DNA from: a virus
Taxonomy: Duplodnaviria > Caudoviricetes
Reading direction: 5' to 3' (one strand)
Virus record (IMG/VR): IMGVR_UViG_3300048796_000144
Location: 1-40,171 of that record
DNA: 40,171 nt
Made by a program: the position numbers and the translations under genes. This document shows, piece after piece, positions 1 through 4,760 of this stretch (position 1 is the stretch's first letter; the number at the start of each line of letters is the position of its first letter). Below the pieces are notes generated by a model, which saw nothing but the letters and a program-made list of their open reading frames with translations, made no database searches and was not told the DNA's origin.

Positions 1-1384
1 CCGAAACGTTATCAATACTGACCCCGGTCGTTCCCGCAGACGCCTCCATCGCATAGAGTTCACATGGCTGGCTCGCGCACACCATCTTTGCCGTGTGGGT
101 GCCGAGAGTAACCGCGCTGGATGTTCCGACAACGGCGGTCTTCGATCCGCTCGCGACACCGCAGGTTCCGACGTTGGTCGAGTCGATATACAGCGTCCAG
201 GGCTGGATGCCGGTGCCACTCACGCAATAACCGAGCAGATGGTCGAACGGAACTGGCGAAGCAAAGTTGATCGTTGCACCATTCGACGTAGCTGTGACCA
301 GCATCGGATCAGAAGAGTCGGGCTGATACGGCCCGAGCGCCGTGTCGGTCGCCGCGAAGGTGCCGCTGGCAGTTGGGTAATAGTCGAGATTGAAATTGCC
401 CGCCGAGCCAAACGTGCAGTCAGTACACCAGCGCAGCGGAACGACCCCCGAGCCGTGTGATCCGCAGGTTCCCTGCAGTTGCGACATCAGCCGATTAGCC
501 CATCGGCCCGCAAACGTCACAGACAGCACAGAGCCAGCGCCCGGCGTCACGGTCGCATCATTGATCGAACGCGAGTCGCCGTGAATCTGCACGCGCACGA
601 TCTGATTCTGACAGCTATGCAGGGCCGCATCCCAATAGGCCAGCGGCGGGTGCGCACTATTCACATACTCCTGCACAGGTAAAGTTCCGCCCTGCGCGCT
701 CCAATCGAGCGATGTGCCACTTGCCGCCGTGCAGGTGTTCGTCGCCGGATTCCACGCATAGCCCGTGGTGGTACATCCAGCCAGTCCAGAGACTGCGGAC
801 TGCATTGCGGTTGCGGTGACGCTCCCGCCGCCCGACGCCGCCTCCCATGCGCCTGCCACGCAGACGTATATCGATCCAGCCCCCGTGTTCACATACAGCG
901 CCGGCGCGACGCAGGATCCACTGGGGACGCCGGTGCCTTGCGTGAAGGTGAAGGCCGCGGTGGTCGGAACGGTGATGGTGGGATCGTAGGTGTCGAGCGA
1001 CCAGCTGCTGCCGCCGATGCCGTAGATGGGGCCGAGATCGATGAGGTCGCCGGATGGAACGTTATAGACCTGAACGTCGTAGGCATGGCCGGGCGCGGAG
1101 TCGGTGATGGGGTTGGGCACCTGCAGCGAGCCCACCAGCGCGCCCGAGGTGAGCGTCTGGCAGAAGGGCTGCCCGGCTAGATAGAAGCCGCCTCCGGACT
1201 TCGACACAGAGATGGGATTGCCGCGAATATCGACGGCGCGCATACACATGGTGCCAGTGGCCGGCGATCCGCCTGCTTCGACCGTGGTTGCGGTGATAGT
1301 GGTGAGGGCCTGCGCGTGCGCGAGTTGCGGCAGTGCGAGGAGTGAAGCAAGAAGGCTCAGAGAGAGAAGGCGTGCGAATCGCAT
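1..1384 (-). CDS. Secreted fibre/RBP-like protein: signal peptide + conserved Cys-paired N-module + SGNH/GDSL esterase domain (3' truncated by window edge)
   Basis: Hand translation from ATG 1384 is open to base 1: MRFARLLSLSLLASLLALPQLAHA-QALTTITAT...GTMCMRAVD...QPFCQTL...GHAYDV...GIGGSSWSLD; later IVRVQIHGDSRS (SGNH block I), WANRLMSQLQGTCGSHGSGVVP, and GVSIDNVS (block II-like). Not in the ORF track because it has no stop. Confidence 0.85.
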   Translation of the reverse strand, partial: MRFARLLSLSLLASLLALPQLAHAQALTTITATTVEAGGSPATGTMCMRAVDIRGNPISVSKSGGGFYLAGQPFCQTLTSGALVGSLQVPNPITDSAPGHAYDVQVYNVPSGDLIDLGPIYGIGGSSWSLDTYDPTITVPTTAAFTFTQGTGVPSGSCVAPALYVNTGAGSIYVCVAGAWEAASGGGSVTATAMQSAVSGLAGCTTTGYAWNPATNTCTAASGTSLDWSAQGGTLPVQEYVNSAHPPLAYWDAALHSCQNQIVRVQIHGDSRSINDATVTPGAGSVLSVTFAGRWANRLMSQLQGTCGSHGSGVVPLRWCTDCTFGSAGNFNLDYYPTASGTFAATDTALGPYQPDSSDPMLVTATSNGATINFASPVPFDHLLGYCVSGTGIQPWTLYIDSTNVGTCGVASGSKTAVVGTSSAVTLGTHTAKMVCASQPCELYAMEASAGTTGVSIDNVS

Positions 1385-1460
1385 GGGCTGAGTCTCTCGC
1401 GCGCGCGGGAGAACCAGAACAGCGGCTGCGCTGCGGCGCGAGCTTGGCGTGGATACAAAA

Positions 1461-2981
1461 TCAGTGCCCAGCAATATCGAGCACCTCCACGGTCGATTGC
1501 GATCCAGACAATGTAATGGAGGGGGATACTCCTCCGACGCTCGCTGGAGTGTATTTCCATATTTGAGCGCCACTCGCAGAATTCAGCGATGCCCCGATGC
1601 TCGAACTTGGGGTGCCTACATTGCCTCCGGCAACAATCAGGACCAGGTCCGAAGTTTGCGGGCTGCCATCCGTGGCATAGGCAGTCGAGCTGCTTCCTGC
1701 CCCCGAAACAGAAAGACTCGCGGTGCCCGTTCGATAGCCGCCCGACAATCCTGCGAGAATAACGATTCCGGCAAAATTGCCAGCGGGATAGCCATTCGTC
1801 ACCGTCACGGAGCCGCTAGAGATATCGTTGGCGTTGAGAACTCTTCTGCACGCCACTGCTGAAAATGAACCACCGCTTGAGCTGTAAATCGCCGCCCAAC
1901 CAGCGGGACACCCTTGCGAACCTGTAGACCCGGCAAAAATATAAGCTTCATCGCCCGCCGACGCGCCGCTGAACGACACAGTGAAACTTGTCGCACTGGA
2001 AGCCTGCAGGCTACTTGTCCTTATTGTGGGCTGCGTTGGGGTGGCCGCCGGTCCGGTGGGACCGGTTGGGCCAGTCGGACCAGTTGCGCCTGTCGCACCT
2101 GTGGGCCCCGTCGCTCCCGTCGGCCCGGCTGGTCCTGTTGCGCCGGTTGCCCCCGTCGCGCCAGTAGCACCCTGAATTCCCTGCGCCCCCTGCGCTCCGG
2201 TCGCGCCTTGAATTCCCTGCGGGCCTTGCGGCCCTGTCGCACCCGTTGCTCCAGTCGCGCCTGTTGCTCCGGCCTGCGCAATCAGCGCCCAATATGCGGT
2301 GTTGGTCGGAAGCTGGTTGATGCTGCTGGCGATGGCGAGGTAGGAGCTGCCGCCATAGCTCACCGCATTGTCGATCGCATAGCTGGTGCCGCCATTCCAC
2401 GCGCCCAGCCATGTGACCGATGCGCCTCCGCCGCCGCCGGCTGCGATGAATACGCCGGCATAGCAGATGCTCAGTGTGGCAACGCCGCTGTTCACGCGCA
2501 CGTCGAGCGCGGGCGCGGTGCAGTACGCCGGAGCTGACCCGCCGCCGACTGTGAATGTGAATGCCGCGGCCGTCGGCACCGTGCTGGGCGGAACGTAGTT
2601 GTCCAACGACCAGGTGCTTCCGCCGATGCCGTAGACGATACCGAGATCGCGGCGCACTCCCGACCCGCTGTTGTAGACCGTGACGTCGTAGCCATGGCCA
2701 TGCGCGGAGTCTGTAACTGGATTCGGCACAGATAGCGATCCGGTCAGCGCGCCCGAGGCGAGCGTCTGACAGAAGGGCTGGCCCCCGACATAGAAGCCGC
2801 CGCCGGAGACGGTCAGCGAGATCGGCTGGCTCTTCGCGTCCACCGCGTTCAGGCACAGCGTCCCATTCACCGGCCCGGAGGTTCCCCAGTTCACTGCGGT
2901 CGCAGTGATTGAAGTCAGCGCCTGCGGGAACACTGGCACGGCACTGAACAACAGCAGCGGAAGAAAGGCGCGGAGTTTCAT
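1461..2981 (-). CDS. Secreted collagen-like fibre protein: signal peptide, shared N-module, CBM5/12-like domain, 25 Gly-X-Y triplets, C-terminal beta-rich tip domain
   Basis: [79 protein letters not shown]...TAYWALIA; (GAT/GPQ/GPT)n. Confidence 0.88.
2046..2270 (-). repeat. Collagen Gly-X-Y coding repeat (25 triplets)
   Basis: 9-nt periodicity; translation [21 protein letters not shown]...GPTGPA. Confidence 0.95.
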
Positions 2982-3006
2982 TTGGATTCCTTCTGGTTTG
3001 AAACTG

Positions 3007-3678
3007 CTATGGTGCGGTGGCTGTGAACGGGCCTGCGGTTACTCCGGTCTCCGAGCGCGTGTCGACAACGAAGCCAGGGCTGCCGGTGGAGTAGTGGCTG
3101 CCTGTGTCGGAGTATGAATCCGACGCGAACGTGGCGAGGTCGGTGCAGGTAAGCGTGAAGGCGGAGTCAATGGAGAGCTGCAGCACGTCGCCCGGCGATG
3201 CAATGGGACATGTGCCCAGCGTGCCGATGTTGCTGGATGGGCTGGTCGCGATCACCAGCGCGCCGGTCGCGGCCTTCCAGAGATAGCCTGCGCCGGTGGA
3301 GGCGTTGCCGCGCACCATCACGCCGGAGATGCCCGGATGCGCCGTGAAGCTGATGGAGACATACGCCGTCTGGTTTGCGGGCATGGCGCCGGTGGGCGTG
3401 AAGAACTCGACGGCGAAGCTCCTGGCCGCGGGTGCCGCCACTCCGCCGGCGCGGGTTGCGACGTTGCTGCTGTACGCGGTCCAGCAGCTGCTGAGCGCGC
3501 CGGTCCCGGTGAACGGGTCGTAGAACGTCAGCGTGCAGGAGTTGACGTATGCGGGAAACACCTTGCGGTTGCCGCCGGTGACGATGGTCTGCGGATGCGC
3601 GTGGCTGACGAACACAACGCCGAGCATAAGCAGCACGCCAATGAGAAGGCCGATGAGGAATCGATCGAGTCTGTTCAT
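3007..3678 (-). CDS. Secreted beta-rich (lectin/ConA-like) protein
   Basis: [27 protein letters not shown] signal peptide; Gly/Ser/Thr-rich beta strands (GISGVMVRG...GYLW...GDVLQLSID), 4 Cys; TGATG coupling to upstream gene. Confidence 0.75.
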
Positions 3679-4760
3679 CAGTAAGTCCCCGCAACGTCGA
3701 TGCCGATCTGCTTCGAAGTGCCGTCGGCGACGAACGTGATCTTCAGGTAATCTCCGGCTGCGATAGTGATGGTGCTGGATTGCGTGCCGTTGGCGTAGGT
3801 CGCGGAGGCTGTGACTGCGCCCGTCAGCAGAGCGGTGCCTGCGCTGTTGGTGGCCGCGCAGGTCGATGCGCCGGCATCTTCGACGCAGCGGATCGCCGAC
3901 AGCGCCCAGGTGTAGCCAGTCTCATTCCTGCAGGTGGTGGTGAGGTACGTTCCCGCGGGAATCGTGTTCAGCCCGTCGCCGATGCCGGCCTGGCAACTGA
4001 GCGAGAGCGTCGCGGCTGGGCCTGTGGCTCCGGTTGCGCCTGTGGCTCCGGTCGTGCCCGTCGCTCCGGTTGCGCCGGTTGCGCCTGCGGGTCCGGTTGC
4101 GCCGGTCAGGCCGGTTGCGCCGGTCGGGCCTGCTGGGCCGGTTGCGCCTGCAGGACCTCCGCCGAAGTTGACGAAGACCCCGCCGAAACATGCGCTACCC
4201 GTTGCCACTCCACTGTTCACGCGCACGTCGATCGCGGGGGCGATGCAGCTGGAAGGCGCGGCGCCGGAGCCGGTGGTGAAGGTGAACGCAGGGCCAGTGG
4301 GCGAACTGCTGGGTGGGACGTAGCTATCGAGCGACCAGGTCGAGCCGCCGACGCCGATGATCACGCCGAACAGGTCGACGCCAACTTCAGAACTGCCGGT
4401 GGGCGAGGGCGCCGTGACTCCAGTGCCGCCGACGCCGGGCGTTACCGGGCCAACGTAGACGATGGCATCGTAGCCATGGCCGGGAACGGAATCGGTGACG
4501 GAGTTGGGAACCTGCAGCGATCCCGCCAGCGCGCCGGTGGTGAGCACCTGGCAGAAGGGCCATCCGGCCGCGTAGACGGTGCCGCCGGAGTTGGTGACGG
4601 AGATGGGATTCTTCTGCGCGTTGACGGCCGTCATGCACAGCGTGCCCGTGATCGGCGTGCCCGCAACGTTGATGCTGGTCGCGGTGACGGTGGTCATGGA
4701 CTGCGAGAGCGCTGGGAGGGCTGCGAGGAGAAGAGCGGCGGTTACGAGGCGCAGGCGCAT
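3678..4760 (-). CDS. Secreted collagen-like fibre protein: signal peptide, shared N-module, 16 Gly-X-Y triplets, Cys-containing C-terminal domain
   Basis: ATG at 4760, [52 protein letters not shown]; collagen at 4014-4157. Confidence 0.88.

Follow-up and report, generated by a model that had tools for sequence, protein, structure and literature searches.

Fibre-like proteins with predicted export signals form a conserved cassette at the left end of a transposable phage genome

At the left end of virus record IMGVR_UViG_3300048796_000144 (Duplodnaviria; Caudoviricetes), a complete record of 40,171 nucleotides (nt) analysed over its whole length and referred to below as the window, lie four consecutive minus-strand genes (g1 to g4) whose products are built like tail fibres or tailspikes and begin with apparent Sec-type signal peptides. 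Judged from sequence comparisons, this cassette is a real, conserved and phage-encoded feature, and its genes are the only fibre- and spike-like genes of the genome, kept together at one end. The particles of tailed phages are generally regarded as assembled entirely in the cytoplasm; the features described here suggest that host-recognition parts of this phage likely fold outside it and may join the particle only at or after lysis.

The cassette genes

The cassette and the gene directly before it comprise the following open reading frames (ORFs).

2-1384, minus strand: g1, cut by the contig end; leader, residues 1-24; N-terminal module (N-module), 25-180 (nt 1312-845); then a Cys-paired linker and the first half of an SGNH-like esterase with an inserted beta domain (residues 250-461)
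1461-2981, minus strand: g2, 506 amino acids (aa); leader, 1-19; N-module, 20-180 (nt 2924-2442); Trp-rich repeat, 188-237; collagen stalk, 238-314; beta tip domain, 316-506
3007-3678, minus strand: g3, 223 aa; leader, 1-29; Gln start; small beta-rich protein without the N-module
3678-4760, minus strand: g4, 360 aa; leader, 1-19; N-module with an 18-residue insert, 20-200; collagen stalk, 202-248; four-Cys tip, 250-360
4790-5353, minus strand: HTH_17 (excisionase-like) gene; immediately precedes the cassette both here and in relatives, and 29 nt separate it from g4

The four leaders combine a basic N-region with a hydrophobic core and end in a small-residue site followed by Gln (AHA-Q, VFP-Q, AHP-Q and ALS-Q, in order from g1 to g4), which by a rule-based assessment, including the small residues at -3 and -1, is the pattern of a Sec/signal peptidase I substrate. 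The ORFs and N-termini thus bear out the original prediction of four adjacent leader-bearing genes, except that its cleavage site for g3 (SHA-H) is less likely than AHP-Q, the Gln being invariant in 4/4 sequences. The module that it had recognised in three of the four genes was also recovered, with 160 residues, 58-59% identity to g2 and four invariant Cys in g1, g2 and g4. The mature chains of g2, g3 and g4 contain 6, 4 and 8 Cys, and no membrane anchor or lipobox is visible in these three proteins.

For the C-terminal parts the earlier assignments fared unevenly. Collagen in g2 and g4 scores above the Pfam cut-off, but the CBM5/12 domain proposed for g2 falls below it (E 0.029). The SGNH esterase proposed for g1 gave no Pfam match, only the GDS motif of the GDS/GxND/DxxH blocks falling within the window, but the later blocks are present in the full-length homologues P0084 and P0090, the former of which matches Lipase_GDSL_2 at 4.6e-6. 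The g3 product has 3 homologues, every one with a leader; it had no sequence match in the PDB, and its AlphaFold2 model reached a mean predicted local distance difference test score (pLDDT) of only 43. The GC content at third codon positions (GC3) is 0.80-0.84 in the modules against 0.84-0.89 in core genes, and is lower in the tips of g1 and g2 (0.69 and 0.55). One and the same CG-rich palindrome stands ahead of the start codon in g1 and g4 (1396-1405 and 4769-4778) and in the module gene of the related locus L045, with no clear Shine-Dalgarno site.

Leaders and cysteines across the module family

A family profile built from 13 sequences with their leaders removed matched 373 clusters at 50% identity, the best 150 of which were listed. 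In a control of the signal-peptide rule on 42 genes, the passes were g2, g3 and g4 together with 2/38 non-cassette genes (one lipoprotein-like, one membrane-like); g1 failed, having been entered with a false upstream extension. Among 153 family proteins, 146 have at least 12 residues before the module and 139 of these pass the rule, the other seven starting at or inside the module. Where the module begins 14-55 residues in (137 members), Gln occupies position +1 in 131 and Ala position -1 in 100. The doubt attached to the original prediction, that leaders might prove absent, is therefore not borne out by the N-module profile. Because the leaders and the Gln at +1 are conserved across the family, Sec export and cleavage of the cassette proteins are very probable.

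Cysteine counts are even in 107/118 mature chains and in 104/115 C-terminal parts, compared with 13/24 leaderless control proteins from the window; family members are related, so that these counts are not fully independent, although there is little relatedness among the C-terminal parts. In the module, the Cys of columns 239 and 277 occur together or are missing together in 127/136 sequences. As Cys counts are even and module Cys columns co-occur, disulfide bonds in the cassette proteins are highly likely. In one subfamily, the partner of the first disulfide appears to change: Cys is found at column 39 in 94 sequences, at column 102 in 45 and at column 81 in 46.

A constant N-terminal module followed by variable C-terminal tips, the design of tail fibres and tailspikes, is found throughout the family. 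The tips of the 58 proteins scanned include GDSL/SGNH, LamG, GH43-like, collagen, K1-lyase C-terminal and S74 domains, most having no Pfam match. A first viral scan with three module sequences found no match, nor did four module queries against 50,697 GenBank phages, and the ESM Atlas returned only unnamed, mostly viral clusters for the module.

The cassette as the left-end module of the phage

A search with the module found 10 metagenome loci, all 10 beside phage genes. The module gene lies directly behind the same helix-turn-helix (HTH) gene in 8/10, and in the other two precedes a tyrosine integrase (L042) or a terminase (L048). Scanning with the gene upstream of the HTH gene gave 7 viral loci, one of which ends inside that gene; the remaining 6/6 informative loci carry a module gene in the same slot, with varied tips, two of them repeating loci already found. 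With duplicates merged there are ten Mu-like relatives, each with one or two module genes whose products range from 242 to 1,742 aa. In L039, L041, L046 and L052, a 26-mer with ACA as its final letters is found 0.2-0.8 kb past the outermost module gene, and host genes follow it in L039 and L052. The counterpart at the other end of the window is:

40137-40162, plus strand: probable right terminus of the Mu-like genome, a 26-mer whose last letters are ACA, common to six ends in relatives

This end rests on the comparison with relatives, and the 26-mer pattern was fitted after the ends had been seen, with one match per region. In G003 and G005 the 26-mer lies about 75-115 nt after the J-like tail gene described below; G002 and G004 are cut too early to show the right end, so that the lineage statement on fibres after this gene covers the visible ends. 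The claim that no fibre gene follows the J-like gene holds in the window, where the likely phage end takes its place. In G001 (L066) the right-end slot after the J-like gene contains a Dam-like methyltransferase gene, identified by eye.

Since the terminal 26-mer lies beyond the module genes in relatives, the cassette is, by this comparison, the left-end module of the phage, with no fibre gene after J wherever the end is visible. The other possibility named at the outset, that the cluster is host DNA next to a prophage, could draw on the fact that the contig ends inside g1, leaving the left end of the window phage outside the sequence, and scans of a genome collection were uninformative either way; given phage ends outside the cassette in four relatives, host genes beyond two of them and phage genes adjoining 10/10 metagenome loci, it is hardly tenable and was rejected. 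An assembly chimera was likewise rejected: peat metagenome run X1, the one run found to contain this DNA and possibly the source sample, contains a contig identical to 1-5794 that extends 2,210 nt further left and shows no joints across this region (the run may be the source of the record).

Links between the module and the virion

Leaderless homologues connect the module to ordinary fibres. The near-identical L060 and L061 (E about 1e-35 on a deep profile that included them, 1e-16 to 1e-18 on the 13-sequence profile) carry the module without a leader, an in-frame stop lying just upstream, and have 0 Cys each, and the same is true of the cut L063. In L060 and L061 the gene stands before that of the large terminase subunit (TerL), the slot in which L048 has a leader-bearing, 10-Cys gene. 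Their relative P0156 is leaderless, has 2 Cys, shares shaft repeats (by eye) with the leader-bearing P0004 and ends in a Peptidase_S74 chaperone (E 1.9e-14), which is a hallmark of trimeric tail fibres. Because these leaderless, Cys-poor proteins carry the module, in P0156 together with S74, the N-module is homologous to part of a recognised fibre and, as far as sequence can tell, exists in an ordinary cytoplasmic fibre, leader and Cys having been gained or lost together.

In three HK97-like phages (L059, L062 and L064) the module gene belongs to the tail operon, where it follows the tape-measure gene and a single small gene. A leaderless gene of ∼130 aa stands before the exported module gene in each (L059:9527-9922, L062:9500-9883 and L064:9530-9925); its product faintly resembles the module (E 0.001-0.2) and is a candidate docking adaptor.

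A further link involves the tail of the window phage itself, through two features.

37045-39774, plus strand: J-like central tail protein, leaderless, 909 aa, last structural gene
38701-39318, plus strand: insertion in the J-like protein (residues 553-758), homologous to the g2 tip

The J-like label derives from position and conservation, the protein having no PHROG or Pfam match. The g2 tip and the insertion share 32% identity over 165 aa (59 bits, whereas 200 shuffles reached at most 22.7), and the insertion is absent from 5/5 relatives. It is a 205-residue beta domain of surface-protein type with a GC3 of 0.72, compared with 0.83 for the body, and looks like a recent gain. No other fibre gene was found in this genome.

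In the PDB, the module model (pLDDT 85.7) matches the A-1(L) tail fibre best, a weak likeness (Foldseek E 1.6e-3, template modelling score 0.47), with P22 tailspike head-binding chains lower in the list; at the sequence level the module had no match in the PDB. Many of the BFVD rows for the model are tail or fibre proteins, and the two rows below 1e-3 are both uncharacterised phage proteins. A predicted trimer of the N-module (three copies, 78-row alignment) scored 0.37 against a mark of 0.42 and gave no answer.

Expression

The gaps along the series gp16-like gene, HTH gene, g4, g3, g2 and g1 are 33, 29, -1, 25 and 76 nt, and no sigma-70-like promoter was found in 1-6200, a weak test given that 0.9 were expected. 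The cassette probably ends a leftward operon that starts near the repressor, as judged from gene order, and is likely expressed with this lytic operon; such a position suits a lytic role better than that of lysogenic cargo. A 23-nt repeat before the HTH gene was considered as a cassette promoter and rejected, being absent from 69/69 loci and found on unrelated contigs. It belongs to a 23-30 nt intergenic element with four copies in the window (5357-5386, 10120-10145, 17387-17419 and 26202-26231; 0 expected by chance), each forming two short hairpins closed on a TTC triloop; its absence from the 69 fetched loci and presence on other X1 contigs suggest a small mobile or host repeat.

A proposed assembly step at lysis and its alternatives

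In the proposed mechanism, the fibre- or spike-type proteins of the cassette would be exported by Sec during lytic growth and cleaved by signal peptidase to give Gln-started chains, which would fold with disulfide bonds in the periplasm. The collagen-bearing chains would trimerise; from the general behaviour of collagen, trimers built on these stalks are probable. The shared N-module would dock the fibres on particles when lysis mixes the compartments, at or after lysis, and the docked proteins would act as swappable host-recognition or coat-cutting appendages. The probability that exported cassette proteins dock on virions in this way is put at about 0.5. The J-like protein probably still gives basic infectivity, which would make the cassette accessory, like the side fibres of lambda. 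The original prediction had offered either virion appendages or a cell-surface adhesin/decoy system; its export with disulfide folding gains support from the leaders and Cys patterns, and between the two the evidence leans to the virion, through the leaderless S74 homologues, the tip held in common with the J-like protein, the tail-operon position elsewhere and the lack of a detected promoter of its own.

Several observations weigh against virion docking. No virion partner of the N-module emerged from the analysis. With a conserved C-terminal domain of its own, the J-like protein could be the sole receptor binder. The cassette genes follow an early/middle operon and not the late operon, the GC3 of the g4 tip is core-like (0.82), and the best PDB fold match of the module misses the tool's 0.001 mark. 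The tip domain shared by g2 and the J-like protein is common in bacterial surface proteins (9/10 structural rows), which shows traffic between pools more than location, and the signal peptides were judged by a simple home-made rule. Export is not needed in this host group, as the structural genes and fibres examined in Tunturi 3 and 4, cultured phages of Acidobacteriota, are leaderless. Cell-bound adhesins of the same architecture exist as chromosomal genes in the predator Bdellovibrio bacteriovorus, where 13 of 21 mosaic adhesive trimer (MAT) genes carry S74 according to the main text of PMC10769870.

Proteins exported in the lytic cycle might also never be attached, the trimers being released free at lysis or located in the infected-cell envelope; such trimers would bind or cut the host coat, open the matrix for progeny or keep competing phages out. 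Tips of the esterase, GH43-like, LamG and lyase types could all work in trans, adsorption may need no more than the J-like protein, bacterial secreted proteins also contain the tip domain, and export parts proteins from the cytoplasm, where particles are assembled. We regard unattached trimers as less likely than docking but as a real rival: a free enzyme would need no conserved anchor-like module before stalks of up to 1,700 residues, and the module also heads a leaderless S74 tail fibre. Less probable still is lysogenic-conversion cargo, in which a quiet prophage would express MAT-like surface adhesins or decoys to the benefit of its host. The genome-end position, where cargo often sits, would suit such a role, as would the MAT design of a signal peptide, a conserved domain, ∼130 aa long and rich in beta structure, and mosaic tips (PMC10769870, main text), and exported Gln-start proteins of Porphyromonas phages have been read as host-envelope modifiers (PMC10367356, main text). 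Against this, the short gap between the HTH gene and g4 with no promoter found (by the weak test above) looks like the tail of a repressor-controlled operon, g2-g4 lack a visible membrane anchor or lipobox, and the module has core-like GC3 and is present in 6/6 relatives.

Finally, the leaders might not serve export in practice, with a phage protease removing them or the inner membrane holding the fibres while assembly remains cytoplasmic. The leaderless homologues indicate that the module can fold in the cytoplasm, and signal-like leaders of capsid proteins have been suggested to be cut by prohead proteases (PMC10367356, main text); strict Cys pairing is limited to the leader-bearing forms and the -3/-1 pattern is that of signal peptidase, which makes non-export very improbable.

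Genome setting and host

On the basis of its gene set and strands, the window phage is a transposable siphophage in which early and late genes diverge.

11661-12731, minus strand: B ATPase
12718-14850, minus strand: Mu-type transposase
15307-16380, plus strand: repressor-like gene, identified by eye

Plus-strand genes comprise endolysin, terminase, Mu portal, F, protease, capsid, gp36, gp37, tube, tape measure and tail-tip genes. The phage resembles Mu/B3-like transposable siphophages in its Mu-type transposase, B ATPase, gp27, portal, F, gp36 and gp37 and in ends terminating in ACA, and the early genes of B3 also point away from the late genes; it differs in having no fibre genes at the end of the tail operon and fibre-like genes at the opposite end of the genome. 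The host is probably a member of the Acidobacteriaceae, because the module homologue P0011 is annotated in Granulicella cerasi (WP_263371857.1) and because, in the related prophage L039, the cluster of one flanking host gene has members named Acidobacteriaceae. Neither the module nor the HTH gene had a relative in scans of a genome collection, and chromosomal, non-phage copies of the module may exist.

After the endolysin gene lie a lipoprotein-like gene (LAGC motif) and two small conserved genes (17946-18638 and 17436-17938), which may act like spanins; near 18470 the reading frame seems doubtful. An ORF of 113 aa between J and the right end (39774-40115) has no family match and may not be a gene.

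Comparison with known systems

Leaderless tail fibres and tailspikes, such as the fibre of A-1(L) (PDB 8KEC), the P22 head-binding domain and S74 fibres, share with the cassette proteins a constant N-module, a stalk and a swappable tip. The weak fold likeness to 8KEC involves chains of 279-280 residues, which by length would be the baseplate-anchored short fibre gp33. The cassette proteins, putative virion appendages, differ in their export-type leaders, Gln starts, paired Cys and gene position at the genome end after the early operon. Tail fibres are made leaderless and assembled in the cytoplasm, whereas leaders are present in g1-g4 and in 139/146 family members, and their genes belong to the late tail operon, a position seen for the homologues in L059, L062 and L064 and not in the window phage. 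With these two textbook features missing, the cassette proteins are likened to tail fibres but are not classed as ordinary members.

The nearest described architecture, by analogy, is the MAT family of Bdellovibrio, in which a signal peptide is followed by a conserved beta-rich domain, mosaic fibre-like bodies and diverse tips; the MATs are chromosomal, the cassette genes lie inside prophage ends, and the likeness of the N-domains is one of description only, the word 'disulfide' being absent from the main text (PMC10769870). Secreted proteins of Porphyromonas gingivalis phages that follow the Q-rule are also phage-encoded and have Sec leaders exposing Gln (PMC10367356; rule in PMC5837995). They differ in that, as far as the main text of PMC10367356 goes, their function is unknown and 'tail fiber' does not occur; the Q-rule paper does not mention Acidobacteria in its available text (PMC5837995).

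Another parallel is Tunturi 2 (PP885685; PMC11924767), a cultured Acidobacteriota podovirus of Tunturiibacter with leader-bearing tail-region genes (gp12-gp17). Five of its tail-region genes have Sec-like leaders by eye, four of them with Gln (L073:9802-22744), and encode proteins with 20, 10, 21, 2 and 34 Cys, including an annotated tail fibre and a pectin lyase. Their N-terminus is unlike that of the cassette, with no match to the N-module, which was not found in Tunturi 2, 3 or 4, the three phages examined, and neither 'signal peptide' nor 'mass spectrometry' occurs in the main text of PMC11924767. No account of exported fibres on tailed phages was found in the literature covered, which largely excluded subscription journals and left out supplements.

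Implications

A large family of fibre-type proteins with conserved export signals would mean either that virion assembly has a late step outside the cytoplasm that is so far undescribed or that phages make a class of surface or secreted fibres, likewise undescribed, in a dominant soil phylum. The window adds three links, namely an anchor module present in exported and in cytoplasmic S74 forms, a tip domain that also occurs in the tail tip of this phage and a slot at the genome end that is conserved, and the cultured Tunturi 2, which has the same design, makes the virion question directly testable. A broader and more tentative idea, to which we give slightly less than even odds, is that tailed phages of Acidobacteria possess a second assembly compartment, in which Sec-exported, pyroglutamate-capped and disulfide-folded receptor-binding appendages would be made, to snap on at lysis by means of a portable anchor module common to transposable, HK97-like and short-tailed phages. 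If so, phages would recruit disulfide-dependent domains from secreted proteins of their hosts, and mixed infections would let them wear each other's fibres.

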